This document shows positions 34,864 through 62,996 of a DNA stretch of 64,000 nucleotides, in pieces. A program made the translations under genes and the position numbers. The stretch lies in contig JAJDVI010000017.1 in NCBI GenBank assembly GCA_022826195.1, forward strand, positions 3,673 to 67,672, given 5' to 3'. This DNA comes from Acidobacteriota bacterium. GTDB lineage: Bacteria > Acidobacteriota > Vicinamibacteria > Marinacidobacterales > Marinacidobacteraceae. How positions within the stretch are numbered: position 1 is the first letter of the stretch; the number at the start of each line of letters is the position of its first letter. The notes below the pieces were generated by a model that ran no database searches, was not told the origin of the DNA, and worked only from the letters and a program-made list of their open reading frames with translations.

Positions 34864-34887
34864 GTACCGCGTCCGGGCTTCGCGGCC

Positions 34888-37574: not shown

Positions 37575-37580
37575 GCCGTC

Positions 37581-38535: not shown

Positions 38536-38929
38536 TACCAACGTACTGATCTACGCAGCCTGCCCGCCTCCGAACGACGTGGCCAAAGCCGAGCGGGCCG
38601 CGGAACTGTTGAGGACCGCGGACATCGCGCTCTCGGCCCAGGTACTCCAGGAGTTCTACGTTCAGGCGACGCGCGCCACTCGCCCCGGCGCCCTGACCCA
38701 CGACGACGCCCGGCGGATGGTCAGGAGTCTCCAACGCTTTCCAGTACAGCCAGTGACCGCGCAAGTCGTGAACGACGCGTTGGCGCTTCGGGAGCGATTC
38801 CAGATCAACTACTGGGACGCCGCAATTCTGGCAGCAGCACGTGTCGCTGGCTGCGACACCGTGTACACGGAAGACCTCAACGACGGACAGGACTACGACG
38901 GTGTGCGCGTGGTGAATCCCTTCGCCTAG
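38522..38929 (+). CDS. vapC: PIN-domain ribonuclease toxin
   Basis: MRFVDTNVLIYAA...QINYWDAAILAAARVAGCDTVYTEDLN shows canonical PIN acidic residues (D5, E~43, D~98, D~118). Confidence 0.75.
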   Translation: MRFVDTNVLIYAACPPPNDVAKAERAAELLRTADIALSAQVLQEFYVQATRATRPGALTHDDARRMVRSLQRFPVQPVTAQVVNDALALRERFQINYWDAAILAAARVAGCDTVYTEDLNDGQDYDGVRVVNPFA

Positions 38930-41241
38930 AACCGGAAGAGGCGGGTGAACTTGACGATGAACGACTGGGTGTTCAGTTCGGGGTATCCCGGGACCAGGGT
39001 GTCCCGGAGCGAGTTGTAGACCACGTAGAAGTCGCTGCCCGGCTCGTACTCCCAGCGGAAGCGGACGTTCGTGGAGAGGCTGCCGGCGGCGCTGTTGTAC
39101 TGGAGGAACGCCGCCAGGAAGCTGCGCGGCGAGACGGTGTAGTTGATGCGGGTGGCCAGCAGGTTGGTGTCGTAGTCGCCCTCGGGCAGCGCGATCCAGT
39201 TCGCGGAGACCATCGGCTCGACGGTCAGACGGGTCATGAGTTCGATCCGGCCGCGCCAGGCGAGTTCCCGGCGGGTGCCGGAGAAGAACCCGCCCTGCTG
39301 GTAGGCGAAGTTGCCCGAGACCGGGCGCTGGGGACCGGCCTGGTAGCTGAGCCGCACGTAGTCGAAGTCGTAGCTGCCGGGCGCCACCCCGAGTTCGTCG
39401 CTCAGCGAGAACGATTCGCTCAGCACCTCGCGGTTCCGGGCGGCGTTCACGTTGACGCTGTCCCCGTTCTCGAACTCCATGTCGTAGCGGAAGCCGAAGA
39501 TCCGGGTCTCGAGTTCGCCCTCGTTGTCGGTGGTGTAGTCCACGCTGCCGGTCCAGCCGACCTTGCGGAGCCAGGAGATCGAATGGGGCCGCGGGCTGAA
39601 ACGGGCCTCCGCGTAGTTCCGCTGGAAGTCCCGCCGGCGGAGGAACCCGATCCCCGGGTCGAACTCGTCCCCGACCACCAGCCGTTCCGCCTGTACGCCG
39701 TAGCGGTCGCCGTTGTAGTCGAGCTGACCCAGATAGCTGAGCCCGGTCGCGTCCTCGAGTTCGTTCTGGGTCCAGGCGGCGTAGCTCCGGATGTCCAGGT
39801 TCTCGAAGAAGCCGAAGCGGGCGTCCATCCCGTAGGCGAAGTTCCGGCCGAGGCCGCTCGCGGTGTGGGAACGGTAGGTCCCCATGACGCCCACGGTGCT
39901 GCGGTTCAGGACGTCGCGCTTCAGCCGGAAGACGGAGAAGTCCGTCTCCGGGGCGCCGGCGTCCGCGCTCTGGCCGCTGCGGATGGCGAGGGCGCCCACG
40001 TTGTAGTCGCCCAGCTTTCCGGTGACCCGGGCACCGCCCGCGATCGGAACCGCCTGGCCGTCCTCGATGCCGATGCGGCGGCTGAAGAAGAGCACGGGGG
40101 TGCTGCTCGGTGGGCCGAAGCTGCGGGTGGATCCCGGCGGCGCGCCGCGGCCCCCCGAGGCGCCGAAGTCGAAGATCCCCTGCCCCTCGAGGAAGAACTC
40201 GCGCTTTTCGGGGAAGAACAGGCTGAAGCGGGTGAGGTTGATCTGCTGCGTGTCGGCCTCGACCTGGGCGAAGTCGGTGTTCCAGGTGAGGTCGGCGGTG
40301 AGTCCGCTGGTGATGCCCACCTTGGCGTCCACCCCGAAATCGCCTCCGTAGTCGCGGTCGAGCGACCCGCTCTCGATTCGGGCCCCGGCCGAGTCGCCGA
40401 TGAGGTACGGCTTCACCTCGACGGTCCGGGAACTCGCCGGCGCCTCGAGGCCCACCAGGGTGCCCGCCGAACTGACCTTGGTGATCGCCCGCGGCCCGAG
40501 CGCCGCCGGGACCTGGGTGAAGTACGACATCTCGTTCTTCCACCGGACCACCCGGCGGAAGTTGATGCCCCAGACCTGCGGGCCGCCCCGGTCGTAGCGG
40601 AGCGTCTTGAACGGGATCCGCATCTCCACGGTCCAGCCGTTCTCGAAGCGCGCCGCCTTCGAATCCCAGACCGCGGTCCAGTCCCGGTTCACCCCCCGCT
40701 CGTCCACGATCAGTCCGTCGAAGAAGCCGCCGATCGGGTTCAGGTAGAAGAAGAAGGCGTTCCGGCGGTCGTAGAAGGTGTCCAGGATGACCGCGAGGTT
40801 CGCGTTGTTGAAGATGCCGAAGTTGTCCCGCCGCATTTCGGTGGCGACGATCCGGTCCGGCTGGCTGTCCCAGCACCGCCCGGCGACGTAGACGGCGTCG
40901 TCGTCGTAGAAGACCCAGACCTCGGTCTCCTCGGTGGCCGGCTCGCCTTCGAGCGGGAGCGCCTGGATGAAGCCGCCCACCCCCGGAACGCGGTCGTAGA
41001 TCCCGTCGTCGAGCCGTCCGTCGAGTTCGATGGGCTCGTCGATGCGGGTGGCGCGCATGGTGGCCCCGCCGAGATCGTCGCGGCGGACCATCTCGGGGAG
41101 TTCGGGGGGTGCGGGGCCGCGCACGGTGAAGGCGGGTTCGGGCGCCGAGCCCTGGTTGTCCTGGGCCTCCGGGAGTGCCGCGGACTGCGCCCACAGCGAG
41201 GGCGGCGCCAGCAGCGCGGCAGCGAGAACGAAGCGAACCAA
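38926..41241 (-). CDS. Array copy A: secreted CBM9/DOMON-like + C-terminal β-barrel protein (DUF5916-like architecture)
   Basis: Likely TTG start giving the signal peptide (M)VRFVLAAALLAPPSLWAQS. Conserved blocks: DGRLDDGIYDRVPGVGGFIQ, DTFYDRRNAFFFYLNP, TWNTDFAQVEAD, FFPEKREFFLEGQG, RFRWEYEPGSD. The C-terminus is ...FIVKFTRLFRF (terminal-Phe OM β-barrel signature). The ORF-track start at 41442 adds 67 non-signal residues. Confidence 0.6.
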   Translation of the reverse strand: MVRFVLAAALLAPPSLWAQSAALPEAQDNQGSAPEPAFTVRGPAPPELPEMVRRDDLGGATMRATRIDEPIELDGRLDDGIYDRVPGVGGFIQALPLEGEPATEETEVWVFYDDDAVYVAGRCWDSQPDRIVATEMRRDNFGIFNNANLAVILDTFYDRRNAFFFYLNPIGGFFDGLIVDERGVNRDWTAVWDSKAARFENGWTVEMRIPFKTLRYDRGGPQVWGINFRRVVRWKNEMSYFTQVPAALGPRAITKVSSAGTLVGLEAPASSRTVEVKPYLIGDSAGARIESGSLDRDYGGDFGVDAKVGITSGLTADLTWNTDFAQVEADTQQINLTRFSLFFPEKREFFLEGQGIFDFGASGGRGAPPGSTRSFGPPSSTPVLFFSRRIGIEDGQAVPIAGGARVTGKLGDYNVGALAIRSGQSADAGAPETDFSVFRLKRDVLNRSTVGVMGTYRSHTASGLGRNFAYGMDARFGFFENLDIRSYAAWTQNELEDATGLSYLGQLDYNGDRYGVQAERLVVGDEFDPGIGFLRRRDFQRNYAEARFSPRPHSISWLRKVGWTGSVDYTTDNEGELETRIFGFRYDMEFENGDSVNVNAARNREVLSESFSLSDELGVAPGSYDFDYVRLSYQAGPQRPVSGNFAYQQGGFFSGTRRELAWRGRIELMTRLTVEPMVSANWIALPEGDYDTNLLATRINYTVSPRSFLAAFLQYNSAAGSLSTNVRFRWEYEPGSDFYVVYNSLRDTLVPGYPELNTQSFIVKFTRLFRF

Positions 41242-41455
41242 GGGGCGGGAGAAGGGTGCGAAACCCGGTAGGCGGAACTCTACGTCGGGACCCGCGAGCG
41301 GTCGGGGAGCCCTCGGACACAATCCGGGGGCGCCACCCCCGCTCTTGAGCCCCACGCCGAGGCGGGAGCCACCTTTCCGGATGTGGTTGGAGCGTGCGCG
41401 GCGCGGAGCGCCGCGGTGCCGGTCTGGAGACCGGCGTTCCAAGCCGGCGCGCTGT

Positions 41456-43783
41456 TCAGAAACGGAAGAGGCGGGTGAACTTGACGATGAAGGACTGGGT
41501 GTTGAGTTCGGGGTAGCCGGGGGCGAGGGTGTCGCGGAGCGAGTTGTAGACCACGTAGAGGTCGCTGCCCGGTTCGTATTCCCAGCGGAAGCGGACGTTC
41601 GTGGAGAGGCTGTTCGCGGCGGTGTTGTACTGGAGGAACGCCGCGAAGAAGCTGCGCGGCGAGAGCGTGTAGTTGATCCGGGAGGCGATCAGGTTGGTGT
41701 CGTACTCGCCGGTCGGGAGGTCGATCCAGTTCAGCGAGACGGTGGGCTCGAGCGAGAAGCGCGTCGTCACCTCGACCCGGCCGCGCCACGCCGCCTCGCG
41801 GCGGGTCCCGGAGAAGAAGCCTCCCTGCTGGAAGGCGAAGTTGCCCGAGACGGGACGCTGCGGCCCCGCCTGGTAGGCGACCCGGACATGGTCGAAGTCG
41901 TAGGGACCCACCCCCACGCCGATCCCCGCGTCCTCGTCCAGAAAGAACTCCTCGCTCAGCACCTCCCGGTTGCGGGCGGTGTCCACGTTCAGCCGGTCCC
42001 CGTTCTCGAGTTCGACCTCCGTCTGCAGCTGGAGGATCCGGGTCTCCAGGACCGCCTCGTTGTCGGTGGTGTAGTCGATGCTGCCGGTCCAGCCGATCTG
42101 GCGCAGCCAGGAGATCGAATGCGGCCGGGGGCTGAAGCGCGCCTCGGCGTAGTTGCGCTGGAAGTCCCGCCGGCGCAGGAACCCGATGCCGGGATCGAAA
42201 CCGTCCCCGACCACGAGCCGTTCCGTCTTCAGCCCGTAGCGGTCGCCGTTGTACTCGAGCTGGCCGAGATAGCTCATCCCGGTCGCGTCCTCGAGCTCGT
42301 TCTGGGTCCAGGCCGCGTAGGACTGGATGGTGAGGTTCTCGAAGAAGCCGAAGCGGGCGTCCATCCCGTAGGCGAAGTTCCGTCCGAGGCCGCTGGCGGT
42401 GTGGGAGCGGTAGGTGCCCATGACGCCCACCGTGCTGCGGTTCAGGATGTCGCGCTTCAGCCGCAGGACCGAGAAGTCGGTCTCCGGCGCGCCGGCGGCG
42501 CTGTTGGCGCCGGTGCGGATCGCAAGCGCCCCGACGCCGAAGTCGCCGAGCTTGCCGGTCACCCGGCCGCCGCCGAGGATCGGCACCACCTGGCCGCCGG
42601 CGATCCCGATCTGGCGGCTGAAGAAGAGCACCGGAGTGCTGCTCGGCGGGCCGAAGCTGCGCGTGGACCCCGCGGGCGGGGCGCGGCTCGAAGTGCCGAA
42701 GCTGAAGGTCCCCTGCCCTTCGAGGAAGAACTCGCGCTTTTCGGGAAAGAACAGGCTGAAGCGGGTGAGATTGATCTGCTGGGCATCCGCCTCCACCTGG
42801 GCGAAGTCGGTGTTCCAGGTGAGATCGGCGATCAGGCCGCTGGTGATGCCGACCTTGGCGTCCACCCCGAAGTCGCCGCCGTAGTCCCGTTCCAGCCCGG
42901 CGGCGTCGGCGCGGATCCCCGCGGAGTCGCCGATCAGGTAGGGCTTGATCTCCACGGTCCGGGAACTCGCCGGCGCTTCGAGGCCCACCAGCGTCCCCGC
43001 CGAGCTGATCTTGGTGATGGCGCGGGGCCCGAGCGCCGTGGGGACCCGCGTGAGGTAGGACAGCTCGTTCTTCCAGCGCACGGTGCGGCGGAAGTTGATT
43101 CCCCACACCTGCGGGCCGCCGCTCGCGTAGCGGAGCGTCTTGAACGGGATCCGCATCTCCATGGTCCAGCCGTTCTCGAAGCGGGCCGCCCGCGAGTCCC
43201 AGACCCCGGTCCAGTCGCGGTTCGGGGGGTTCTCGTCCGCGATGAGGCCGTCGAAGAACCCGCCCAGCGGGTTCATGTAGAAGAAGAAGGCGTTCCTTCG
43301 GTCGTAGAAGGTGTCGAGGACGACCGCGAGGTTCTCGTTGTTGAAGATGCCGAAGTTGTCCCGCCGCATCTCGGTCGCCACCATGCGGTGGGGCTGGCTG
43401 TCCCAGTTCCGGCCGGCGATGTACACCGCCTCGTCGTCATAGAAGACCCAGACCTCGGTCGGCTCGGTGGCCGGTTCGCCCTCCAGCGGGAGCGCCTGGA
43501 TGAAGCCGCCGACCCCGGGCACCCGGTCGTAGATGGCGTCGTCGAGGCGGCCGTCGAAATCGAGCGGTTCGGTGAGGCGGGTGGCCCGCATGGTCGCTCC
43601 CCCGGCCTCGTCGCGCCGGACCATCTCGGGAAGCTCGGGAGGCGCGGGACCGCGTACGGCGGAGGCCGGGGCCGAGCCTTGACCGTCCTGATGCTCGGCG
43701 AGCTCGGCGGGCTGCGCCCCCAGCGGGGCCGGGCCGATCAGGGTGGCCGCGGCCAGGAGCAAACGGAACGCGGAGCGGGACAA
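41456..43783 (-). CDS. Array copy B: same family (very close paralog of A)
   Basis: 775 aa. ATG start with signal MSRSAFRLLLAAATLIGPAPLGAQP. Visibly ~85% identical to A over the N-domain. C-terminus FIVKFTRLFRF. Confidence 0.65.
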   Translation of the reverse strand: MSRSAFRLLLAAATLIGPAPLGAQPAELAEHQDGQGSAPASAVRGPAPPELPEMVRRDEAGGATMRATRLTEPLDFDGRLDDAIYDRVPGVGGFIQALPLEGEPATEPTEVWVFYDDEAVYIAGRNWDSQPHRMVATEMRRDNFGIFNNENLAVVLDTFYDRRNAFFFYMNPLGGFFDGLIADENPPNRDWTGVWDSRAARFENGWTMEMRIPFKTLRYASGGPQVWGINFRRTVRWKNELSYLTRVPTALGPRAITKISSAGTLVGLEAPASSRTVEIKPYLIGDSAGIRADAAGLERDYGGDFGVDAKVGITSGLIADLTWNTDFAQVEADAQQINLTRFSLFFPEKREFFLEGQGTFSFGTSSRAPPAGSTRSFGPPSSTPVLFFSRQIGIAGGQVVPILGGGRVTGKLGDFGVGALAIRTGANSAAGAPETDFSVLRLKRDILNRSTVGVMGTYRSHTASGLGRNFAYGMDARFGFFENLTIQSYAAWTQNELEDATGMSYLGQLEYNGDRYGLKTERLVVGDGFDPGIGFLRRRDFQRNYAEARFSPRPHSISWLRQIGWTGSIDYTTDNEAVLETRILQLQTEVELENGDRLNVDTARNREVLSEEFFLDEDAGIGVGVGPYDFDHVRVAYQAGPQRPVSGNFAFQQGGFFSGTRREAAWRGRVEVTTRFSLEPTVSLNWIDLPTGEYDTNLIASRINYTLSPRSFFAAFLQYNTAANSLSTNVRFRWEYEPGSDLYVVYNSLRDTLAPGYPELNTQSFIVKFTRLFRF

Positions 43784-43806
43784 GGCGGAAACTCTATGGC
43801 GGAACG

Positions 43807-46002
43807 TCAGAAACGGAAGAGGCGCGTGAACTTGACGATGAACGACTGGGTATCGAGTTCGGGATACCCCGGGATGAGGGTGTCCCGGAGCGAGTTGTAG
43901 ACGAGATAGAAGTCGCTGCCCGGCTGGTACTCCCAGCGGAACCGGACGTTCGTGGAAAGGCTGTTCGCGGCGCTGTTGTACTGGAGGAACGCGGCGAGAA
44001 AGCTCCGGGGAGAGAGGTTGTAGTTGAGCCGCGCGGCGACCAGCCGGGTGTCGTAAACCCCGCCCGGGAGGGTGATCCAGTTGAGGGAGACGGTCGGTTC
44101 CACGATGAAGTGGGGAATGACTTCGAGCCGGCCGCGCCAGGCGAGTTCGCGCCTCGTTCCCGAGAAGAACCCGCCCTGCTGGTAGGCGAAGTTTCCCGAG
44201 ACCGGCCGCTGGGGCCCGGCCCGGTAGCTGAGGCGGGCGGTGTCGAAGTCATGGGGGCCGACGGCCACCGCCAGTTCGTCCGCCAGCCGGAACTCCTCGT
44301 GGAGCACCTCGCGGTTCCGCGCCAACTGGAACTGGAAGCTGTCTCCGTTCTCCAGCTCGGCGTCGGACCGGAGAGCCAGGATCCGGGTTTCGAGATTCCC
44401 CTCGGTGTCGGTTGTGTAGTCGAGGCTGCCGGTGCCGCCGATCTTCCGCAGCCAGGCGATCGAGCGCGGCCGGGGGCTGAAGCGCGCCTCCGCGTAGTTG
44501 CGCTCGAAGTCCCGGCGCCGCAGGAAGCCGATCCCGGGATCGAAGCCCTCGCCGACCACCAGCCGCTCGAGCTGGAGCCCGTAGCGGTCGGCCTGGTAGT
44601 CGAACTGGCCGCGGTAACTCATGCCGGTCCGCTCTTCGTGCTCGTTCTTCGTCCAGGCCGCGTAGCTCCGGATGTCGAGGTTCTCGTAGAACCCGAAGCG
44701 CGCGTCCATCCCGTAGGCGGCGTTGCTCCCCAGACCGGCTCCCGTGTCGGAGCGGTAGGTGCCCATCATCCCGACCGTGCTGCGGCCGAGGATGTCCCGC
44801 TTCAGCCGGATCACCGAGAAGTCGGTTTCCCGGGCGCCCGCAGCGGCGCTCTCGCCGGACCGCATGGCGAGCGCGCCGACGCCGAAGTCACCGAGCTTCC
44901 CCGTCACCCGGGCGCCGCCGTGGATGGGCACCAACTGGTTCCCGGCGATCCCGATGCGGCGGCTGAAGAAGAGGAGCGGGACGCTGCTCGGCGCTCCGAA
45001 CCTGCGGGCCGAGGCGCGCGGCGTCCGCTCCGAGGTCCCGAAGGCGAAGAGTCCCTGTCCTTCCAGGAAGAACTCCCGCTTTTCGGGAAAGAAGAGGCTG
45101 AACCGGGTCAGGTTGATCTGCTGGGCGTCCGCCTCGACCTGCGCGAAGTCGGTGTTCCAGGTCAGGTCGGCGGTGAGCCCGCTGGTGATCCCGACCTTGG
45201 CGTCGACCCCGAAGTCGGAACCGAACTCCCGCTCGAATTGGATGTCCCCGGTCCGCGTCCCGGCGGCATCGCCGGTGAGGTACGGCTTCACCTCGACGGT
45301 CCGGGAGCTGGGCGGCGCCTCGAGGCCGACCAGGGTGGCGTAGGAACTCACCTTGGTGATCGACCAGATGCCGAGGGCGGCCGGGAGTTGGGTCAGGTAG
45401 GAGATCTCGTTCTTCCAGCGGACGACGCGGCGGAAGTTGATGCCCCAGACCTGCGGGCCTCCGCCGGGATAGCGGAGGGTCTTGAACGGAAACCGCAGTT
45501 CGGTCGTCCAGCCGTCCTCGAACCAGGCGGTCCGGGAGTCCCACACCGCGGTCCAGTCCCGGTTGAAGTTGCGTTCGTCGGTGATGAGGCCGTCGAAGAA
45601 CCCGCCGAGGGGGTTCAGGTAGAAGATGAAGGCGTTCCGGCGGTCGTAGAAGGTGTCGAAGGTGACGGCGAGGTGCTGGTTGAGCCAGATGCTCCCGTGG
45701 TCGCGCCGGAGTTCGTTGGCCACGATCCGGTGGGGCTGGGTGTCCCAGCAGCGTCCGGCGATGTAGATCGCCTCGTCGTCGAAAAAGACCCAGACCTCGG
45801 TCTTTTCGGTGGCCGGCGCTCCTTCGAGCGGCTCGGTCTGGATGAAATCACTGATGCCGGGAACCTGGTCGTAGATCGCCTCGTCGAGGCGTCCGTCGAA
45901 GTCGAGCGGCTCTTCGAGGCGAACGGCCCGGATGGTGGCGCCACCGAGGTTGTCGCGCCGGATCATGGCCGGGGGTTCGGGGGGCGCGGGGCCGTGGATC
46001 AC
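43807..46002 (-). CDS. Array copy C: same family (more divergent member of the A–C subclade)
   Basis: The ORF-track start is a GTG (VIHGPAPPE...). The in-frame upstream sequence LSRVPGLLGALAAGLVSAPPLAGGQ looks like the real signal peptide. The true start may therefore be a non-ATG codon near 46104, overlapping the stop of copy D. C-terminus FIVKFTRLFRF. Confidence 0.55.
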   Translation of the reverse strand: MIHGPAPPEPPAMIRRDNLGGATIRAVRLEEPLDFDGRLDEAIYDQVPGISDFIQTEPLEGAPATEKTEVWVFFDDEAIYIAGRCWDTQPHRIVANELRRDHGSIWLNQHLAVTFDTFYDRRNAFIFYLNPLGGFFDGLITDERNFNRDWTAVWDSRTAWFEDGWTTELRFPFKTLRYPGGGPQVWGINFRRVVRWKNEISYLTQLPAALGIWSITKVSSYATLVGLEAPPSSRTVEVKPYLTGDAAGTRTGDIQFEREFGSDFGVDAKVGITSGLTADLTWNTDFAQVEADAQQINLTRFSLFFPEKREFFLEGQGLFAFGTSERTPRASARRFGAPSSVPLLFFSRRIGIAGNQLVPIHGGARVTGKLGDFGVGALAMRSGESAAAGARETDFSVIRLKRDILGRSTVGMMGTYRSDTGAGLGSNAAYGMDARFGFYENLDIRSYAAWTKNEHEERTGMSYRGQFDYQADRYGLQLERLVVGEGFDPGIGFLRRRDFERNYAEARFSPRPRSIAWLRKIGGTGSLDYTTDTEGNLETRILALRSDAELENGDSFQFQLARNREVLHEEFRLADELAVAVGPHDFDTARLSYRAGPQRPVSGNFAYQQGGFFSGTRRELAWRGRLEVIPHFIVEPTVSLNWITLPGGVYDTRLVAARLNYNLSPRSFLAAFLQYNSAANSLSTNVRFRWEYQPGSDFYLVYNSLRDTLIPGYPELDTQSFIVKFTRLFRF

Positions 46003-46100
46003 GCGAGCGGGCGCCGGCTGCTCCTCCGGCTGGCCGCCGGCCAGCGGCGGCGCCGAGACCAGTCCGGCGGCGAGGGCGCCAAGCAGCCCGGGAACGCGAC

Positions 46101-48518: not shown

Positions 48519-48619
48519 GGCGACCGGCTCTCGGCGCGAGAAATCTCGAAAACCAATGCGAATTCTAGCGGAACGGCGCGATGCGCCGCCCTGCCGTTTG
48601 GGGCGGGGACGCGGTCCCG

Positions 48620-51019
48620 TCAGAACCGGAACAGACGGGTGAATTTGACGACCAGCGCGCGGTCGCTGAGCCCGGAGAGGCCGTCGTCGCCGTCGCGGTT
48701 CGTGCTGAACACCACGAACAGGTCGCTGCCCGGCGAGTACTCCCAGCGGTAGCGGATGTTCGCCGAGAAGAGCTGCGCCGCGGAGTTGTACTGGACGAGC
48801 GCCCCCAGGAAGCTGCGCGGCGACACGGTGTAGGTCGCGCGCAGCCGGCTGACCTGCGCCCGCACGCTGCCCTCGGGCACCTCGATCCAGTTGAGACTGA
48901 CGTTCGGCTCCAGGGAGAAGCGGGTGTTGAACTCCGCCCGTCCCCGGTAGCTCACCTGGCGCCGGGTGCCGCCGAAGAAGTCTCCGAACTCGTAGCGCAG
49001 GAACCCGGAGAACGGGCGGTGCGATCCCATCCGGACGCGGACGCCGGTGCGGGAGAAGCGGTAGTCGCCCGCGGGAACGTCGACCTCGCTGGAGAGGCTG
49101 AACCCTTCCAGGAGGTGCTCCTCGGTCACCGTGTGATCCACGAAGAGACGGTCGCTGCTCTCGAAGATGGTCTGGATCTGGAACATGTACTCGCGCGTCT
49201 CGGTCTCGCCGTCGGGACGGTCGTAGTTGTCCGCCTGCACCTGGAACTCGACCTGCCGGATCGACTCGATGCCGCGGGGACGCGGCGCGAACGTGACGCT
49301 TCCCCCGTCCTTCGTGAAGTCCCGGCGGCGGACGAAGCCCATTCCCGGATTGAAGTCCTCGCCGAGATACAGGCGCTCGGCGGAGATGTCGAGCAGATCG
49401 GTGTCGTAGCGGAACTGGCCCAGGTAGCTCGCCGCCTGGTGCCCGGTCTCGACGCCCGGCTCGCTCGTCGCCATGTAGAAGGTGTTGATGCGGATGTGGT
49501 CGGTCGGGTTGAAGTTCCCGTCCACCCCGTAGAGGGAGTTCGATCCGCTACCGTCGGCGGTCACGTTCCGGTGGGTCGCGATCACCCCGACGTTCGACCG
49601 CGAGAAGATGTCGCGCTTCATCCGGAAGGCGCTGAAGTTGGTGCTCTCGGCGTCCACTCCCTGCGCTTCGCCGGTCTGGATGTTCAAGAGCCCCATCTGG
49701 TAGGCGCCGGCCCGGCCGTGGAGGCGCGCGCCTCCCAGGATGGGTACCGCGCTCCCTCCCGAGATCCCGATCGAGCGGCTGAAGAACGGGATGGGGATGT
49801 CGCTTCCACCCCCGCCGCCGAACCCCCGGGCCTGCCGGCCGCCGAAGCCGAAGACCCCCTGCCCTTCGAGGAAGAACTCCCGCTTTTCCGGGTAGAACAG
49901 GCTGAAACGGCTCAGGTTGACCTGCGTCTCGTCGTCCTCCACCTGCGCGAAGTCGGTGTTCCAGGTGACGTCGGCGGTGAGCCCGTCGGTGACGCCGAAC
50001 TTGAAGTCGGCGCCGACGTCGCCGGACCACTCGTTCAGCCGGTCGTTCAGCGGGACGTGCGTCTGGGAGCCGATGGCGTACGGCTTCAGCTCCATCCGCC
50101 GCGAACCGGCGGGCGCCTCGAGACCCACGAGGGTCGCCGCGTTCGAGAGCCGTTCCAGTCCGTTCCGGCTGTACGCCTGGGGCGTCGGGGTCAGGAACGC
50201 CTGCTCGTTCCGGTGCTTGATGCGGCGCCGGAAGTTGATTCCCCAGAGCTGGGGCCCCCCGGCCGCGTAACGGAGCGAGCGGAAGGGAATCCGGATCTCC
50301 AGGGTGTAGCCGTCTTCGACGAGCCGGCTCTTCACCCACCAGACGGTGTTCCAGTCGCTGTTCGTGTTCCGCTCGTCGGTCACCTGGGCGTCGAAGAGCG
50401 CGCCCAGGGCGTTCGTGTGGAACAGGAAGCCGTTCCGCCGGTCGTAGAACGTGTCGATGATCACCGAGAAGCTGTCGCCCCAGTCGATGTTCCGCTGGTC
50501 GCGGCGCATCTCGTTGGCCATCAGCAGTTCCGGGTGGTCTTCTTCCAGCTCGGCGGCGATGTAGAGGCTGTCGGCGTCGTAGAGCACCCACACGCGGGTG
50601 GACTCCGAAACCGGGGCGCCCTCGTCGGGCTCCTGCTGCACGAATCCTTCCGCCGCCGGCACCTGGTCGTACACCGGGTCGTCGAGCACTCCGTCCACGG
50701 TGATCGGCTCGGAGAGGCGGAAGGCGCGGAGGGTGACCCGGCCGTCGGCGCCGCGGCTGACCGCCTCCCCTGCCGTCGGGGCCGGCGGACCGAGGATGGG
50801 GCTCTCCATCGCCGAACTGAGGTCCTGCTGCCCGTCGGCGAGCCGGCCGGCGCCGCGGCCCGGGATTCCCAGGTCGTCCTGACTGTCCTGAAGCCGGCGG
50901 TCCGCAGGCGGCCGAACGGGTCCATCGGGTGCGGCGAACGACGGGCCGGCGGCCAGCATCAGCAGGCTGGCGGCAGCAACGCCCGTCAAGAAAGAGGCAG
51001 TTTGCAAGCGGCGGGGCAC
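48620..51019 (-). CDS. Array copy E: same family (D–G subclade)
   Basis: 799 aa. GTG start. Signal MPRRLQTASFLTGVAAASLLMLAAGPSFA. ~90% identical to F over long stretches. C-terminus LVVKFTRLFRF. Confidence 0.65.
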   Translation of the reverse strand: MPRRLQTASFLTGVAAASLLMLAAGPSFAAPDGPVRPPADRRLQDSQDDLGIPGRGAGRLADGQQDLSSAMESPILGPPAPTAGEAVSRGADGRVTLRAFRLSEPITVDGVLDDPVYDQVPAAEGFVQQEPDEGAPVSESTRVWVLYDADSLYIAAELEEDHPELLMANEMRRDQRNIDWGDSFSVIIDTFYDRRNGFLFHTNALGALFDAQVTDERNTNSDWNTVWWVKSRLVEDGYTLEIRIPFRSLRYAAGGPQLWGINFRRRIKHRNEQAFLTPTPQAYSRNGLERLSNAATLVGLEAPAGSRRMELKPYAIGSQTHVPLNDRLNEWSGDVGADFKFGVTDGLTADVTWNTDFAQVEDDETQVNLSRFSLFYPEKREFFLEGQGVFGFGGRQARGFGGGGGSDIPIPFFSRSIGISGGSAVPILGGARLHGRAGAYQMGLLNIQTGEAQGVDAESTNFSAFRMKRDIFSRSNVGVIATHRNVTADGSGSNSLYGVDGNFNPTDHIRINTFYMATSEPGVETGHQAASYLGQFRYDTDLLDISAERLYLGEDFNPGMGFVRRRDFTKDGGSVTFAPRPRGIESIRQVEFQVQADNYDRPDGETETREYMFQIQTIFESSDRLFVDHTVTEEHLLEGFSLSSEVDVPAGDYRFSRTGVRVRMGSHRPFSGFLRYEFGDFFGGTRRQVSYRGRAEFNTRFSLEPNVSLNWIEVPEGSVRAQVSRLRATYTVSPRSFLGALVQYNSAAQLFSANIRYRWEYSPGSDLFVVFSTNRDGDDGLSGLSDRALVVKFTRLFRF

Positions 51020-51058
51020 GGGGAGTTTCGTCCGAACCGGGGGTAAAAACCGGCGCGG

Positions 51059-51088
51059 ACTATAGCCGCCCGGCCGCCGGGTTGCGAA
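51059..51088 (-). promoter_or_regulatory. Candidate promoter in the F/E spacer (-35 TTCGCA, 18-nt spacer, -10 TATAGT) driving copy E
   Basis: Read on the minus strand of the 120-bp spacer. A comparable TAGAAT hexamer sits ~45 nt upstream of copy D (plus 48562-48567). Confidence 0.2.
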
Positions 51089-51139
51089 CGCGTCTCGGGG
51101 GGCCCGGCAGAGCGGTGCCCGAGGGGATCCGGAACCCCG

Positions 51140-53533
51140 TCAGAACCGGAAGAGACGGGTGAATTTCACGACGACCGCGCGGTCGCTGAGCCCGGAGAGC
51201 CCGTCGTCCCCGTCGCGGTTCGTACTGAAGACCACGAACAGGTCGCTGCCGGGGGAGTACTCCCAGCGGTAGCGGACATTGGCCGAGATCAGTTGCGCCG
51301 CCGAGTTGTACTGGACGAGCGCGCCCACGAAACTGCGCGGCGAAACCGTGTAGCTGGCGCGGAGGCGGGTCACCTGCGCCTGGACGTCGCCCGCGGGCAC
51401 CGTGATCCAGTTCAGGCTGATGTTGGGCTCCAGCGAGAAGCGCTGGTTCAGCTCGACGCGTCCCCAGTACATGACCTCCTGCCGGGTGCCGCCGAAGAAG
51501 TCCCCGAACTCGTAGCGGAACATCCCCGAGAACCGGCGATGGGATCCCATCCGGATCCGCACCCCGCTGCGGGAGAACCGGTAGTCGCCGGCGGGAACCG
51601 CGACCTCGTCCGAGAGGTCGAAACCGGCGAGAAGACGCTCTTCGGTGATCGTGTGATCGAACATGAGGCGGTCGCTGCTCTCGAAGATGGCGCGCGCGTC
51701 GAACCGGTACTCGCGGGTTTCCATGGCGCCGTCCGGGCGGTCGTAGTTGTTCGCCTCCGCCTTGAACTCGAGCTGGCGGATCGCCTCGATCCCGCGGGGA
51801 CGCGGCGCCACCTGGAAGGAAGCGCCGTTCTTCGTGAAGTCCCGGCGGCGGACGAAGCCCATGCCCGGGTTGAAGTCCTCACCCAGGTAGAGCCGTTCCG
51901 CGGTGATGTCGATCAGGTCGGTGTCGTAGAGGAACTGGCCCATGTAGCTGGCGGCGGCGTGCCCCGTGTCCACGTCCGGCTCGCTGGTCGCCATGTAGAA
52001 GGTGTTGAAGCGGATGTAGTCCGTCGGGGCGAAGTTCCCGTCCACGCCGTAGAGGGAGTTGCCTCCGGAGCCGTCCGCGCTGACGTTCCGGTGGGTGGCG
52101 ATGACCCCGATGTTCGACCTCGAGAAGAGGTCGCGCTTCACGCGGAAGGCGCTGAAGTTGGTGCTCTCCACGTCGAGTCCGCCGACCTCGCCGGTCTGGA
52201 TGTTCATGAGGCCCATCTGGTAGGAGCCGGCGCGGCCGTGCATGCGGGCGCCGCCGAGAATCGGCACCGCGCTGCCCCCCGAGATCCCGATGGAACGGCT
52301 GAAGAACGGGATGGGAATGTCGGTCGGGCCGCCGAAGAAGCGGGTCTCCCGGCCGCCGAAGTCGAAGACCCCCTGTCCTTCGAGGAAGAACTCGCGCTTT
52401 TCCGGGTAGAAGAGGCTGAAACGGCTCAGGTTGACCTGGGTCTCGTCGTCTTCCACCTGCGCGAAGTCGGTGTTCCAGGTGACGTCGGCGGTGAGGCCGT
52501 CGGTAACGCCGAACTTGAAGTCGGCGCCGAGGTCGCCGGACCAGTCGTTGTGGATGTCGTTCAGGGGAACGTGGCTCTGGGAGCCGATCGCGTAGGGCTT
52601 GAACTCCATCCGCCGCGATCCGGCGGGCGCCTCGAGACCGACGAGCGTCGCCGCGTTGGAGAGCCGCAGCAGGGCGAACCGGTCGAACGCCTGGGGCGTC
52701 GGGGTGAAGAACACCTGTTCGTTGTTGTGCTTGATGCGGCGGCGGAAGTTGATCCCCCAGACCTGGGCTCCCCCCGCCGCGTAGCGGAGCGAGCGGAAGG
52801 GGATCCGGATCTCCACGGTGTAACGGTGGTCGAGACGCTGGGTGTTGACCCACCAGACCGTGTTCCAGTCGCTGTTGGTGTTCCGCTCGTCGGTCACCTG
52901 CGCGTCGAAGAGCGCGCCCTGCGCGTTCGTGTGGAACAGGAAGCCGTTTCGCCGGTCGTAGAAGGTGTCGAGGATGACCGAGAAGCTGTCGCCCCAGTCG
53001 ATGTTCCGCTGGTCGCGCCGCATCTCGTTGGCCATCAGCAGCTCGGGATGCTCCTCTTCGAGGTCGGCGGCGACGTAGAGGCTGTCCGCGTCGTAGAAGA
53101 CCCAGACGCGGGTGGACTCCGACGGCGGGGCGCCCTCGTCGGGCTCCTGCTGCGTGAATCCCTCCGCCGCCGGGACCTGGTCGTATACCGGGTCGTCGAG
53201 CACGCCGTCCACGGTGAGGGGCTCGGAGAGACGGAAGGCGCGGAGCGTCACCCGGCCGTCCGCGCCGCGGCTGACCGCCTCGTCGGCGGCGGGAGCCGGC
53301 GGCCCGAGGATGCGGTCCGCCATCGCCGAGTCGAGCGCCTGCTGGTTCGCGGCGAGCCTGCCGGAGCCGCGGGAGGAGGCGAGGCCGAGATCGTCCTGAT
53401 CGTCCTGGCGCCGCTCCTCCGCCGGGGAACCCGGTCCGTCCTGCGCGGCCGCGCCGCCGGCGGCCAGCACGGAGCCGGCCAGCAGTACGCCGAGAGCGGC
53501 GGCGACGCCGCCCGGCAACGCTCGGAAAGACAT
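51140..53533 (-). CDS. Array copy F: same family (D–G subclade)
   Basis: 797 aa. ATG start. Signal MSFRALPGGVAAALGVLLAGSVLAAGGAAAQ. C-terminus VVVKFTRLFRF. Confidence 0.65.
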   Translation of the reverse strand: MSFRALPGGVAAALGVLLAGSVLAAGGAAAQDGPGSPAEERRQDDQDDLGLASSRGSGRLAANQQALDSAMADRILGPPAPAADEAVSRGADGRVTLRAFRLSEPLTVDGVLDDPVYDQVPAAEGFTQQEPDEGAPPSESTRVWVFYDADSLYVAADLEEEHPELLMANEMRRDQRNIDWGDSFSVILDTFYDRRNGFLFHTNAQGALFDAQVTDERNTNSDWNTVWWVNTQRLDHRYTVEIRIPFRSLRYAAGGAQVWGINFRRRIKHNNEQVFFTPTPQAFDRFALLRLSNAATLVGLEAPAGSRRMEFKPYAIGSQSHVPLNDIHNDWSGDLGADFKFGVTDGLTADVTWNTDFAQVEDDETQVNLSRFSLFYPEKREFFLEGQGVFDFGGRETRFFGGPTDIPIPFFSRSIGISGGSAVPILGGARMHGRAGSYQMGLMNIQTGEVGGLDVESTNFSAFRVKRDLFSRSNIGVIATHRNVSADGSGGNSLYGVDGNFAPTDYIRFNTFYMATSEPDVDTGHAAASYMGQFLYDTDLIDITAERLYLGEDFNPGMGFVRRRDFTKNGASFQVAPRPRGIEAIRQLEFKAEANNYDRPDGAMETREYRFDARAIFESSDRLMFDHTITEERLLAGFDLSDEVAVPAGDYRFSRSGVRIRMGSHRRFSGMFRYEFGDFFGGTRQEVMYWGRVELNQRFSLEPNISLNWITVPAGDVQAQVTRLRASYTVSPRSFVGALVQYNSAAQLISANVRYRWEYSPGSDLFVVFSTNRDGDDGLSGLSDRAVVVKFTRLFRF

Positions 53534-53649
53534 GGGACGCGTGGGGTCGGAATCGAGGAAACCGGGACCAGTTTACGGAAAGCGGCCCTTCGGTCCCAAC
53601 GCGTTCCGGCTGCCCCCGGGAACGGTGGGATTCGGGGCGGGAGGTTCCC

Positions 53650-56091
53650 TCAGAACCGCATCAGGCGGGTGAACTTGACGACCAGCGCCCGGTCGGTGAG
53701 CCCGGAGAGGCCGTCGTCGCCGTCCCGGTTCGAACTGAAGACCACGAACAGGTCGCTGCCGGGGGAGTACTCCCAGCGGTAGCGGATGTTGGCCGAAAAC
53801 AGTTGCGCTGCCGAGTTGTACTGGACGAGCGCCCCCAGGAAGCTGCGCGGCGAGACGGTGTAGGTGGCGCGGAGGCGGCTCACCTGCGCCCGCACGTCCC
53901 CCGCGGGCAGCGTGATCCAGTTCAGGCTGACGTTCGGCTCGAAGGAGAACCGCTGGTTGACCTCGGCGCGTCCCCAGTACCCGACTTCCCGCCGGGTGCC
54001 CCCGAAGAAATCCCCGAACTCGTAGTTGAGCATTCCCGAGACCTTGCGGTGGGAACCCATCCGGACCCGCACCCCCGCCCGGGCGAACCGGTAGCTCCCG
54101 GCGGGCACCGCGACCTCGTCCGAGAGGTCGAACCCCTCGAGGAGATGTTCCTCGGTCACGTTGTAGTCGAGCATGAGGCGATCGCTGCTCTCGAAGATGG
54201 CGTTGGCCTCGAACTGGTACTCCCGGGTCTCGAGCTCGCCGCCGGGACGCTCGTAGTTGTTCGCCCGCGCCTGGAACTCGAGCTGGCGCACCGCCTCGAT
54301 GCCGCGGGGGCGGGGCGAGAACTGGACGGACCCGCTGTTCTTGGTGAAGTTCCGCCGGCGGAGGAAGCCCATCCCGGGGGTGAAGTCCTCGCCCAGGTAG
54401 AGCCGCTCCCCGGTCACGTCGATCAGGTCGGTGTCGTAGCGGAACTGGCCCATGTAGCTGGCGGCTTCATGCCCGGTCTCGATCCCGGGCTCGCTGGTCG
54501 CCATGTAGAAGGCGGTGATCCGGAGATGCTGGGTGGGGTTGAAGTTCCCGTCCACCCCGTAGAGGGAGTTGGCTCCCGTCCCGTCGGCGTTGATGTTCCG
54601 GTGGGTCGCGATGACGCCGATGTTGGACCGCGAGAAGAGGTCCCGCTTGACCCGGAAGGCGCTGAAGTTCGTGCCCTCGTAGTCGAGCCCCGGCGCCGTG
54701 CCGGTCTGGATGTTCATGAGCCCCATCTGGTAGGCGCCGGCCCGGCCGTGGAGCCGGGCGCCGCCGAGGATCGGCACCGCGCTGCCCCCCGAGATCCCGA
54801 TGGAGCGGCTGAAGAACGGAATGGGAGCGTCGGCGGAGCCCCCGCCCCCCCAGGCCCGGGTCTGCCGGCCCCCGAAGTCGAACACCCCCTGCCCCTCGAG
54901 GAAGAACTCGCGCTTTTCCGGATAGAAGAGGCTGAAACGGCTCAGGTTGACCTGGGTCTCGTCGTCCTCCACCTGCGCGAAATCGGTGTTCCAGGTGACG
55001 TCGGCGGTGAGCCCTTCGGTGACGCCGAACTTGAAATCGGCGCCGACGTCGCCGGACCACTCGTTCAGGGTGTCCCGCAGGGGAGCGTGCGTCTGCGAAC
55101 CGATGGCGTAGGGCTTCAGTTCCATCCGCCGCGAACCGGCGGGCGCCTCGAGCCCGACGAGCGTCGCCGCGTTCGAGAGCCGGTTCAGCCCGTTCATGTT
55201 GTAGGCCTGGGGCGTCGGGGTGAGGAAGGCCCGCTCGTTCGTGTGCTTGATGAGGCGGCGGAAGTTGATCCCCCAGAGCTGCGGCCCGCCCGCCGCGTAG
55301 CGGAGCGACCGGAACGGGATTCGCATCTCCATGGTCCAGCCGTGTTCGAGGCGCTCGGTCCGCACCCACCAGACGGTGTTCCAGTCGGAGTTCGTGTTCC
55401 GCTCGTCGGAGACCTGGGCGTCGTAGAGCGCGCCCACCGCGTTCGTGTGGAAGAGGAAGCCGTTCCGGCGGTCGTAGAAGGTGTCGAGGATGACCGAGAA
55501 GCTGTCTCCCCAGCCGATGTTCCGGTGGTCGCGCCGCATCTCGCCCGCCCGGAGCAGCTCCGGGTGGTGTTCGTCGAGATCCGCCGCGATGTAGAGGTGT
55601 TCCGCGTCGTAGAGCACCCAGACGCGGGTGGACTCGGAGACCGGAGCGCCCTCGACGGGTTCCTGCTGCACGAAGCCCCCGGCGGCCGGGATCTGGTCAT
55701 AGACGGGGTCGTCGAGCACGCCGTCCACGGTGAGCGGTTCGGACAGCCGGAAGGCGCGGAGCGTCACCCCGCCGTCGGCGTCCCGGCTGACCGCTTCGTC
55801 CGCCGCCGGAGCGGGCGGTCCCAGGATGCGCTCGGCGATGGAAGAACTGAGGTCCTGCTGGCTCGCGGCGAGCCGGCCCGAGCCGCGGGAGGAGGAGAGG
55901 CCCAGATCGCCCTGGCCGCCCTGCGCCCCGGCTTCGGCGGCCGGCGCCGCCGGCTCGTCCTGCGCGGGGGCCGCTCCGGCGGCCAGGAGCGCGCCCACCA
56001 GGAGCACGGCCCCGCCGGCGCGCCTCCGCCCCTCCGGACGGATCAGGGAACGATCAGCCAATGCACCCAGCCTCCAGCAACTCCGAATCAC
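53650..56091 (-). CDS. Array copy G: same family (D–G subclade), first gene of the array
   Basis: 813 aa. GTG start. Long n-region then AVLLVGALLAAGAAPAQ. C-terminus LVVKFTRLMRF. Confidence 0.6.
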   Translation of the reverse strand: MIRSCWRLGALADRSLIRPEGRRRAGGAVLLVGALLAAGAAPAQDEPAAPAAEAGAQGGQGDLGLSSSRGSGRLAASQQDLSSSIAERILGPPAPAADEAVSRDADGGVTLRAFRLSEPLTVDGVLDDPVYDQIPAAGGFVQQEPVEGAPVSESTRVWVLYDAEHLYIAADLDEHHPELLRAGEMRRDHRNIGWGDSFSVILDTFYDRRNGFLFHTNAVGALYDAQVSDERNTNSDWNTVWWVRTERLEHGWTMEMRIPFRSLRYAAGGPQLWGINFRRLIKHTNERAFLTPTPQAYNMNGLNRLSNAATLVGLEAPAGSRRMELKPYAIGSQTHAPLRDTLNEWSGDVGADFKFGVTEGLTADVTWNTDFAQVEDDETQVNLSRFSLFYPEKREFFLEGQGVFDFGGRQTRAWGGGGSADAPIPFFSRSIGISGGSAVPILGGARLHGRAGAYQMGLMNIQTGTAPGLDYEGTNFSAFRVKRDLFSRSNIGVIATHRNINADGTGANSLYGVDGNFNPTQHLRITAFYMATSEPGIETGHEAASYMGQFRYDTDLIDVTGERLYLGEDFTPGMGFLRRRNFTKNSGSVQFSPRPRGIEAVRQLEFQARANNYERPGGELETREYQFEANAIFESSDRLMLDYNVTEEHLLEGFDLSDEVAVPAGSYRFARAGVRVRMGSHRKVSGMLNYEFGDFFGGTRREVGYWGRAEVNQRFSFEPNVSLNWITLPAGDVRAQVSRLRATYTVSPRSFLGALVQYNSAAQLFSANIRYRWEYSPGSDLFVVFSSNRDGDDGLSGLTDRALVVKFTRLMRF

Positions 56092-56168
56092 GAAACAACG
56101 AGGAGTGTACCGGGAATGTTCCGTGCTGCGGGACCCCGGATCGCCCCGCCCGCGGTAGATTGGTCACC

Positions 56169-56769
56169 GATGCGGGCCGGTGGGGCGGTGACCGGAGCCT
56201 TGGTCCATTACGGGCGGGCCGAGCTGGTCACGGTCGCGGTGGAAGACGGCGCTCCCCGGCTCCTCGATCGGCGGCGCGTCGAGCTGATCGGCGAAGGGCT
56301 TCCGGGCGCGCCCTACCACCACGAGGCCCTGAAGTTGGACATCGGGGCGGCAACCGCCCTGGTGGATCGGGTGCGGCGGTCGGTGGCGGAACGCGCGGGC
56401 GCGGCGATCTCCACCATGTTGGCGGCGCATCGCGCCCGGGTGCTCATCCTGCCGGCGAGTCCGTACGACCGCCTGCCCGACTCGCTGGCGGAGGTGCTGA
56501 GCTCGCGTCCCCTGACCCGTGCCGCCGACGGCATGCTGTATCGCGAGTCTCTGGCTCAGGCCGCGTCCGCCCTCGGAATGGACGTCCGGAGGTACCCGCG
56601 CAACGCCGATCCGGCGCTGCTCGCGGCCGAAGCGATGGAAGTGGACCTCGCGGGGGTCCGCGCGCTGGTCGCCCGGTTCGGCCGGGAGGCGGGAACGCCG
56701 TGGCGGAAGGACCACAAGCGGGCGGCCGCGGCCGCCCTCAGCGTCCTCGGGCGCCAGATACGTCCGTAG
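56169..56769 (+). CDS. Hypothetical protein (its 3' end is partially duplicated at 60340-60492)
   Basis: 200-aa ORF with high GC3. It is divergent from array copy G. It lies in a frame that continues from a long antisense ORF, but this 600-nt part covers otherwise unassigned DNA. The C-terminal ...GREAGTPWRKDHKRAAAAALSVLGRQIRP is echoed by the remnant downstream. Confidence 0.45.
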
Positions 56770-56806
56770 CGCCGGGCGGCGCCGCGGCCCCGCGATCGGA
56801 GGCTCC

Positions 56807-57940: not shown

Positions 57941-57996
57941 GGCCGCGCGCAGCCGGTCCAGCGCGTGGTACCGGGGAACGGAGACCCGGCCGCCGG

Positions 57997-62965: not shown

Positions 62966-62996
62966 TCGATCGGCTCCCCGTCCGGAGAAGCGCCCC

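Follow-up and report, generated by a model that had tools for sequence, protein, structure and literature searches.

Seven intact, anciently duplicated genes of one outer-membrane protein family, DUF5916, lie consecutively on the minus strand of the 64-kb stretch of DNA from a marine member of the Acidobacteriota (Vicinamibacteria) that was analysed (the window), and are referred to here as copies A to G (Table 1). The copies share a layout, shown with the help of predicted structures, of Sec-type signal peptide, disordered linker, CBM9-like β-sandwich and a barrel of about 24 strands with an aromatic β-signal. The seven ORFs (731-838 aa, no internal stops, GC3 of 0.91-0.94) lie exactly where the first-pass annotation had placed them, align end to end and repeat with a period of 2.28-2.53 kb; no further copy was found elsewhere in the window. 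The motifs quoted in that annotation (DTFYDRRN, TWNTDFAQVE(A/D)D, FSLF(F/Y)PEKREFFLEGQG and the C-terminal VKFTRL(F/M)RF) are all present, as is an extra RRLQD...GRLA..QQ segment in copies D to G, and the spacers of 101-120 bp described for the latter copies were confirmed (D/E, E/F and F/G spacers of 101, 120 and 116 nt). Copies D, E, F and G appear to have promoter-like spacers of their own, with elements that resemble promoters at the consensus level only, and the region upstream of G, where an ORF at 56164-56715 has no NCBIfam match, is presumed to be the regulatory region of the array. Within the array, scans for Rfam families and tRNAs gave no hits, and inverted-repeat scans of its flanks were unremarkable.

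Table 1. Features of the DUF5916 array, in coordinates of the window.
Feature	Position	Strand	Basis or remarks
Copy G, 813 aa, DUF5916 paralogue, first transcribed in the array	53650..56091	-	ORF; Pfam DUF5916 E 1.6e-18
Copy F, 797 aa, ATG start	51140..53533	-	ORF, Pfam; CBM9_1 25.0 bits vs 23.4-bit cut-off
Copy E, 799 aa, modelled copy	48620..51019	-	ORF, Pfam, AlphaFold2 models
Copy D, 805 aa	46101..48518	-	ORF, Pfam, N-terminus reading
Copy C	43807..46104	-	ORF from GTG 46002 (43807-46002), 731 aa; proposed CTG start 46102-46104
Copy B, 775 aa, TTG start	41456..43783	-	ORF, Pfam; 23 nt after the stop of C
Copy A	38926..41241	-	Longest ORF to 41442; likely start TTG 41241
Spacer upstream of D	48519..48619	-	-10-like TAGAAT then GGTTTT; alignment of four spacers
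Spacer upstream of E	51020..51139	-	Sigma-70-like TTCGCA-18-TATAGT
Spacer upstream of F	53534..53649	-	TAAACT then GGTTTC; spacer alignment
Region of ~715 bp upstream of G, no convincing gene	56092..56806	-	No ORF passing the GC3 filter
CBM9-like β-sandwich domain, copy E residues 81-290	50150..50779	-	
Predicted 24-stranded transmembrane β-barrel, copy E residues 309-794	48638..50095	-	
73-aa insert between barrel strands 3 and 4, copy E residues 354-426	49742..49960	-	Homologue alignments

Signal peptides with a positive n-region, a hydrophobic core and an A-x-A-like end were recognized by eye in copies A, B, D, E, F and G (...RRRAGGAVLLVGALLAAGAAPAQ in copy G), none with a lipobox cysteine; that of copy E is modelled as a helix. 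Revised start codons are proposed for two copies. The tight packing described for copies A to C stands for the 23-nt gap between C and B, but the 13-nt gap before A arose because the longest ORF was used: the N-terminus of A aligns with that of B, and a signal-peptide-like segment (MVRFVLAAALLAPPSLWAQ) starts near TTG 41241, so this codon is the most likely start, leaving 214 nt after the stop of B. Copy C lacks a signal peptide when read from GTG 46002, and the start first given for it is off: the 98 nt upstream of the GTG encode a signal peptide in frame (LLGALAAGLVSAPPLAGG) and contain no ATG, GTG or TTG. Because the in-frame signal peptide is conserved, as seen when L002 and L010 are translated (both keep the reading ILSRVPGLLGALAAGLVSAPPLAGGQ), the true start of C is proposed to be the non-canonical CTG at 46102-46104, which overlaps the TGA of D (CTGA, a 4-nt overlap). 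The DNA of the C/D junction is kept in L007 and L008 as well, and more distant orthologues of C have an ATG plus a signal peptide.

The architecture had been likened to that of DUF5916 proteins, and the Pfam search puts all seven copies in DUF5916 (PF19313) with scores of 48.1-67.3 bits (E 1e-12 to 1.6e-18), above the curated gathering threshold of 22.6 bits. The alignments cover only positions ~4-86 of the 572-position model and thus fall short of full-model coverage, which Pfam membership does not require; a more distant relative (P0284) aligns to positions 6-429. Since so little of the model aligns, this Vicinamibacteria clade is placed as a divergent branch of DUF5916. Matches to the DUF5916-type family at E ≤ 1e-3 amount to 31,758 clusters at 50% identity, and the family is present in Acidobacteriota, KSB1, Aminicenantes and other phyla. 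PF19313 usually occurs with PF06452 (CBM9_1) in proteins that NCBI names 'DUF5916 domain-containing protein' or 'carbohydrate binding family 9 domain-containing protein', with which the array copies share domain order and signature motif. No paper in the literature searched mentions the family (DUF5916, PF19313 or IPR045670), in line with the earlier statement that it has no experimentally established function.

The CBM9_1 model (cut-off 23.4 bits) scores above its cut-off in copies D, E and F and below it in A, B and G, and finds no match in C; the N-terminal CBM9-like domain is present in all seven by colinear alignment. Structure comparison confirmed the β-sandwich fold for copy E, upholding the CBM9-like fold suggested in the first-pass annotation. 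A haem-binding DOMON/EB_dh reading was rejected, there being no conserved axial haem ligands (Met/Lys or Met/His). In the PDB sequence search, only the N-domain profile reached 1i82, and profiles of 7 and 138 sequences found no relative of the barrel. The CBM9 domains of xylanases (Thermotoga maritima Xyn10A CBM9-2, 1i82; Caldicellulosiruptor kristjanssonii CBM9, 7nwn) are 16-18% identical to those of the array and sit on a glycoside hydrolase, whereas the CBM9-like domain of the array sits on a predicted membrane barrel. In CBM9, as described in the work on 1i82, a clamp of two tryptophans holds the reducing-end sugar. In the HMMER alignment to 1i82, the first clamp residue is at most one position away from a tryptophan in copies C to G (IDWGDSF, SIWLNQH) and from an asparagine or phenylalanine in A and B; the alignment ends short of the second clamp position. 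Because the clamp is not clearly kept, the ligand may not be a carbohydrate.

The claim of a C-terminal outer-membrane β-barrel was borne out by prediction: the last ~490 aa are predicted to form a closed barrel of ~24 strands, with an alternating hydrophobic/polar pattern and a terminal phenylalanine. Two AlphaFold2 models of copy E have the same topology (pLDDT of 80.3 and 85.1; pTM of 0.81 and 0.86). One face of the strands is hydrophobic and the other polar (31% charged), the polar face being the more conserved (0.86 versus 0.77 identity among D-G). The BAM β-signal ...VVKFTRL(F/M)RF, with its aromatic end, is found in all seven copies; near-invariance extends to R798 in both family alignments and to F799 in the one of 147 sequences. 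Given an even number of strands, and given that BAM substrates have their C-terminus in the periplasm, we infer that the CBM9-like domain joins the barrel at its periplasmic rim, and the TolB_N/FlgO-like domains that relatives carry N-terminal to the CBM9-like domain support this side. The whole-chain pTM is high although ~10% of the copy E chain is disordered, and this, together with a connector (residues 291-308) that is 97% identical among D-G, suggests that the CBM9-like domain is rigidly docked rather than hanging free; its putative role as plug or cap is read from pTM and topology. No solved structure matches over its full length the predicted combination of a 24-stranded barrel and a sugar-binding-type domain fixed to it.

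A CBM9-like domain on the periplasmic side of the barrel, as in the models, would also suit a protein that binds glycan strands of the cell's own peptidoglycan and staples the outer membrane to the wall, the barrel being a pore, in analogy to the SLH-domain porins OmpM and SlpA. Deinococcus SlpA barrels are among the Foldseek matches, the TolB_N/FlgO-like fusions of some relatives fit such a role, and the genes stand alone, as is usual for genes of structural outer-membrane proteins. Residues 95-249 of copy E also weakly match the sensor region of TIGR03785, the family of the histidine kinase PghK (E 6.6e-4, 18 bits versus a cut-off of 612). The periplasmic CBM9-like sensor of Shewanella PghK, which shares with the array proteins a CBM9-like domain in a Gram-negative periplasm, responds to peptidoglycan damage and is proposed by its authors to bind glycan fragments (bioRxiv 10.1101/2023.05.05.539549); this preprint was the only relevant item in the literature searched on CBM9 and the outer membrane. 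However, PghK is an inner-membrane signalling protein, whereas the array proteins are outer-membrane barrels, and peptidoglycan binding by PghK is itself unproven. Rigid docking, rather than a reach to the wall, is favoured by the high pTM and by a connector that is short and very conserved, and wall attachment presents no obvious need for seven diverged copies or for an invariant luminal motif, so that we consider it unlikely.

That motif (NTDFAQVE.D..QVNL.RFSLF.PEKREFFLEGQG...FFSR.IGI) belongs to the insert between strands 3 and 4. It is invariant in 138-147 homologues, down to 30% identity, and the insert, with a pN of 0.01 among D-G, is the only part of a copy that matches the Pfam DUF5916 model. 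It is also the least confident part of both structural models, with low confidence at residues 359-375, and probably lies on the outer side, opposite the CBM9-like domain, and folds into the lumen as a constriction. Its invariant acidic and basic residues (D350, D356, E361, D363, E378, K379, R380 and E385) might alternatively form the active site of an enzyme embedded in the outer membrane, comparable to OmpT, PagP or OMPLA, with the CBM9-like domain holding the substrate: such invariance across phyla is more than usual for a structural loop, and CBM9 modules normally accompany glycoside hydrolases. But a metal site or a latch for the plug would explain the motif just as well, searches of Pfam, NCBIfam and PDB matched no enzyme family, and barrel enzymes such as these are far smaller than a 24-strand barrel, which makes an enzyme very unlikely.

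By sequence comparison, the paralogues are old, having been duplicated before speciation, and each is under purifying selection. Alignment and orthologue grouping both support the two subclades recognized at first, A-C (76-82% amino-acid identity) and D-G (78-82%), which are 45-47% identical to each other. Copies E and F, which had been described as ~90% identical over long runs, share 81.5% of their amino acids and 83% of their nucleotides overall, reaching ~90% only over ~300 nt of DNA that encode the invariant motif; the blocks of 100+ nt reported to recur in D-G are explained by the same region and not by gene conversion. Divergence at synonymous sites is fairly uniform over the length of the genes (pS of 0.22-0.46, no window below 0.18), so there has been no recent gene conversion; with no tract near zero, recent amplification was likewise rejected. 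Within clades dN/dS is 0.23-0.28. The orthogroups of A, B, C and D recur in related genomes, copies E, F and G are each placed with orthologues from L007 or L010, each paralogue is kept at 83-98% in other species, and public homologues reach 94-95% identity in Acidobacteriota MAGs. Because orthologues of each copy are found in related genomes, in the same order in independent assemblies that include megabase-scale contigs, the array is not an assembly artefact; the '_c' names and high coverage of these contigs suggest that they are circular chromosomes. In 57 of 63 more distant loci the gene is single-copy within ±10 kb, and the tandem array of seven genes was seen only in this lineage.

A tandem array of paralogues invites comparison with variable surface proteins that serve host recognition or evasion of phage or host phagocytosis. 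The names of the closest genomes resemble those of host-associated MAG series, and their lineage may be host-associated; the separate promoter-like spacers of D-G fit such a role, and in relatives the array is a hotspot where restriction-modification and IS elements have inserted. However, the outer loops are predicted to be short, at 2-15 aa, and do not exceed the strands in variability (0.80 versus 0.82 identity), a dN/dS of ~0.25 is accompanied by no hypervariable segment, no signals of inversion or recombination were found, and the paralogues are well conserved between species, as given above. As topology also places the CBM9-like domain on the periplasmic side of the barrel, the surface binding repertoire proposed in the first-pass annotation is not supported, and a variable surface role seems highly improbable.

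The genes around homologues were compared at 19 non-redundant loci (74 proximal versus 67 distal ORFs). No family occurred in more than 2-3 ORFs of the test, the proximal ORFs share no family (at most 2 of 74), and hydrolases are no commoner close to the gene than distally; a link to peptidases and amidohydrolases, which eleven homologue contexts had suggested, was dropped after this test. No conserved partner genes at these loci point to a substrate. Directly upstream of the array is an acyltransferase-3/OpgC-like gene, and one relative has a β-helix/NosD domain at its N-terminus; both would accord with a protein that exports a glycan or glycolipid, or anchors it at the surface, resembling LptD, the synthase-dependent porins PgaA, AlgE and PelB, or the capsule lectin Wzi. 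But OZ252286 lacks the acyltransferase at this position, none of the 12 contexts read and of the 19 loci tested has a glycosyltransferase, synthase, Wza/Wzc or Lpt gene beside it, and exporters are usually single-copy, which leaves export or anchoring distinctly unlikely.

Three known systems resemble the predicted architecture in part. TonB-dependent transporters (Cir, BtuB, FecA, SusC, RagA) have 22 strands rather than the 24 predicted here and an N-domain of different fold; a TonB-dependent receptor was rejected, with no Pfam match to Plug (PF07715) or TonB_dep_Rec (PF00593) even at E up to 10, and inspection of the first 80 residues by eye revealed no motif like a TonB box. Usher barrels, of which PapC and FimD are among the structural matches, have 24 strands gated by a β-sandwich plug, but this plug is an internal insertion, whereas the sandwich of the array proteins is N-terminal; a fimbrial usher was rejected, as there is no Usher Pfam match and no chaperone or pilin genes are nearby. 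LptD (26 strands), the second-ranked Foldseek match, likewise has an N-terminal periplasmic β-sandwich/jellyroll followed by a very large barrel; it differs from the array proteins, which have no LptE partner and seven copies, and was rejected because the strand number differs, there is no LptD/OstA match in Pfam or NCBIfam and the overlay is poor (Foldseek TM ~0.3).

The reading we prefer, put forward tentatively as possible rather than probable, is that the products of the array are pores that each stand alone, work independently of TonB, are gated by a plug and differ in specificity. Solutes, most plausibly oligosaccharide-like, would cross a lumen lined with conserved charged residues, and the lectin-like domain would bind them, or gate the pore, at the periplasmic exit. 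Each copy would be a pore in its own right, its gene judged to stand alone from the neighbours of the 19 homologues, which share no family. The seven copies would form a repertoire that differs in specificity or in conditions of expression, with C and B tightly packed behind D, and A following after its longer spacer. Of the dosage- or diversity-driven role first suggested for the expansion, the evidence favours diversity: paralogues that predate speciation, with recurring orthogroups, the dN/dS of purifying selection and no gene-conversion tracts, speak for a repertoire rather than for dosage.

A broader proposal, which we offer as speculative and rather doubtful, is that DUF5916 is an unrecognised class of outer-membrane transporter, with a 24-strand barrel, a lectin-type CBM9-like periplasmic plug, a constriction formed by an invariant loop and no need of TonB, which a Marinacidobacterium-like, possibly host-associated, lineage expanded to at least seven specialised copies for the uptake of glycans or muropeptides derived from host or prey. 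The family is catalogued but unstudied, and the array provides a well-supported annotation plus a hypothesis and not a new mechanism. If its members are transporters or wall tethers, they would fill a gap in the understanding of the outer membranes of little-studied phyla, for which the seven natural variants lying side by side in this genome, with orthologues in several others, are a handy starting set.

Seven consecutive long ORFs of 731-838 amino acids (copies A to G, G being transcribed first) occupy positions 38926-56091 of the minus strand in a window of about 70% G+C. Their GC3 is 0.91-0.94 and their codon-position G+C pattern is that of real genes, they can be aligned with each other end to end, and a direct-repeat search returned seven in-register copies with a period of 2.28-2.53 kb; together these results uphold, far beyond chance, the seven-gene array of the first-pass annotation. 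An eighth copy was looked for elsewhere in the window and not found. Pairwise identity is 76-82% within A-C, 78-82% within D-G and 45-47% between these two clades. E and F, previously described as about 90% identical over long runs, share 81.5% of their amino acids and 83% of their DNA overall, and their DNA identity nears 90% only within the ~300 nt that code for the invariant motif of the family. Because pS is fairly even along the genes (0.22-0.46), the recurring DNA blocks are attributed to protein constraint, and recent gene conversion is ruled out as their source.

The 13-nt gap reported before A is a product of choosing the longest ORF: when A is aligned with B, its signal-peptide-like segment (MVRFVLAAALLAPPSLWAQ) starts near TTG 41241, leaving a spacer of 214 nt. 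The spacers of D-G measure 101, 120 and 116 nt, as originally described, and have in common a -10-like hexamer followed by GGTTT, a hint of separate promoters. Read from GTG 46002, C lacks a signal peptide; in the 98 nt before that codon, the same frame gives ILSRVPGLLGALAAGLVSAPPLAGGQPEEQ and contains no ATG, GTG or TTG. This reading is preserved in two loci from related genomes, L002 (where the changes are silent or conservative) and L010, the junction DNA is conserved in L007 and L008 as well, and farther orthologues of C have both an ATG and a signal peptide. The conserved signal peptide of C lacks a canonical start, and a CTG at 46102-46104 overlaps the stop codon of D (CTGA), an arrangement kept in several related genomes. 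Translation of C may start at this CTG or at the preceding ATT, and would then probably be coupled to termination of D.

The nearest genomes are MAGs assigned to Acidobacteriota and Vicinamibacteria, 'Candidatus Marinacidobacterium' chromosomes among them; several of the isolate names resemble those of sponge and coral MAG series. Their loci carry the same paralogues in the same order, which rules out an assembly artefact. A distance tree places A, B, C and D each in a cluster with orthologues drawn from many genomes; for E, F and G the orthologous partners come from L007 or L010. With this grouping and a dN/dS of 0.23-0.28 inside each clade, the duplications are older than speciation and each copy is maintained by selection. 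Copy content varies around a total near seven, since relatives have an additional B-like paralogue, ~84-86% identical to B and adjoining it, that is missing in the window. In one 3.67-Mb chromosome the copies also number seven but their mix differs; restriction-modification and HTH genes break up this array, and strain variants have IS elements. The insertions and flanks in L080 and L082, which differ between strain variants of one sample, comprise a large HTH protein, HsdM fragments, DUF1016, IS110 and ISL3 transposases and a type I/IIG restriction-modification system. At 63 more distant loci, the gene is single within 10 kb in 57 and present in two or three copies in six; tandem pairs occur in KSB1-type relatives.

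The wider locus is syntenic, as the same RND efflux pair (membrane-fusion protein and AcrB-type pump) flanks the array in the relative OZ252286. The acyltransferase-3/OpgC-like gene directly upstream of the array, whose longest ORF and the P450 ORF overlap in different frames, is absent at the equivalent position in OZ252286. The GPP34 ORF runs in-frame into the P450 ORF, interrupted solely by one TAG, and towards its end it already resembles the N-terminus of a P450 (PGLPLLGNGL...FRIRAPG). A GPP34-P450 fusion disrupted by a nonsense mutation is one possible reading, a sequencing error another.

Coordinates of the array, its flanks, the predicted parts of copy E and related loci
Feature	Location	Strand	Remark
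Copy A	38926-41442	-	longest ORF
Copy B	41456-43783	-	
Copy C	43807-46002	-	
C signal peptide region	46002-46104	-	CTG at 46102-46104
Copy D	46101-48518	-	
Copy E	48620-51019	-	799 aa
Copy F	51140-53533	-	
Copy G	53650-56091	-	
E, helical signal peptide and disordered acidic linker	to about residue 55-80		AlphaFold2
E, beta-sandwich	residues ~81-290		AlphaFold2
E, short, very conserved one-strand connector	strand 295-301		AlphaFold2
E, 24 strands	residues 309-794		AlphaFold2; end ...VKFTRLFRF
Additional B-like paralogue	L002 5199-7529; L003 5062-7392; L008 5119-7443; L005 7440-9761		
Array insertions/flanks in relatives	L080 15055-21088; L082 2637-3884, 17800-22412		
PD40 beta-propeller/amidohydrolase protein (1040 aa), JmjC-domain protein, beta-lactamase-family hydrolase, sodium:dicarboxylate symporter	28741-36111		downstream of array
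Two ORFs	37005-38144	+	no family match
Acyltransferase gene to copy G (~715 bp)	56092-56806		no ORF of coding-like composition; several G+C-rich imperfect inverted repeats
Acyltransferase-3/OpgC (MdoC)-like membrane protein	~56807-57990	-	NF003014, E 3.9e-42
Cytochrome P450 ORF	57997-59025	-	
GPP34 (Golgi phosphoprotein 3 family) ORF	59050-60108	-	in-frame TAG 59050-59052
Possible GPP34-P450 fusion	57997-60108	-	
tRNA-Val (TAC)	61585-61659	-	
tRNA-Val, then RND efflux pair	61585-64000		

The suspected likeness to DUF5916 was borne out, all seven copies exceeding the Pfam threshold (48-67 bits versus 22.6), with only the first ~86 of the 572 model positions aligning. The CBM9-like match holds for D, E and F; A, B and G score just below the CBM9_1 threshold. 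Copy E was modelled twice with AlphaFold2, on an alignment of 147 homologues and on one of 138 that extends to 30% identity; the models agree with each other (pLDDT 80.3 and 85.1; pTM 0.81 and 0.86), and both contain the C-terminal beta-barrel that had been predicted. BAM substrates have a C-terminal beta-signal whose end lies in the periplasm, and an even strand number puts both barrel ends on the same side; the CBM9-like domain would therefore join the barrel at its periplasmic rim. By strand parity, the outward-facing connections would be the longer ones of 9-15 aa, together with an insert of 73 aa that separates strands 3 and 4, and the periplasm-facing turns those of 2-9 aa. TolB_N/FlgO-like domains N-terminal to the sandwich in some relatives fit with a periplasmic sandwich. 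Extra N-terminal domains among the homologous proteins P0248, P0253 and P0294 are either TolB_N/FlgO-like or a right-handed beta-helix (NosD/pectate-lyase-like).

No stretch of the family is more conserved than the 73-aa insert, which contains NTDFAQVE.D..QVNL.RFSLF.PEKREFFLEGQG...FFSR.IGI; it is invariant in homologues of other phyla and has a pN of 0.01 among D-G. It is modelled with the lowest confidence in copy E, and probably folds into the barrel lumen. Because whole-chain pTM is 0.81-0.86 despite ~10% disordered chain, the sandwich seems to be docked as a cap or plug, its position on the barrel fixed. The preferred reading, put forward tentatively, is that each copy is a stand-alone gated pore working without TonB, in which the invariant insert would narrow the lumen and the lectin-like domain at the periplasmic exit would bind cargo or gate the pore, the seven together forming a repertoire. 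The chief competing model, a porin whose CBM9-like domain would also tether the outer membrane to peptidoglycan, finds a precedent in PghK and sits less well with a sandwich that seems rigidly docked. Glycan export or anchoring, a barrel enzyme and the variable surface-binding repertoire first suggested for the array are each less likely than gated pores or a tethering porin.

The evidence from the array does not demonstrate a new mechanism; the seven copies are further members of DUF5916, a family already catalogued and unstudied. With 31,758 clusters at 50% identity (E <= 1e-3), no experimental work on DUF5916 in the literature searched and an unusual predicted architecture, the family is a reasonable target for study.
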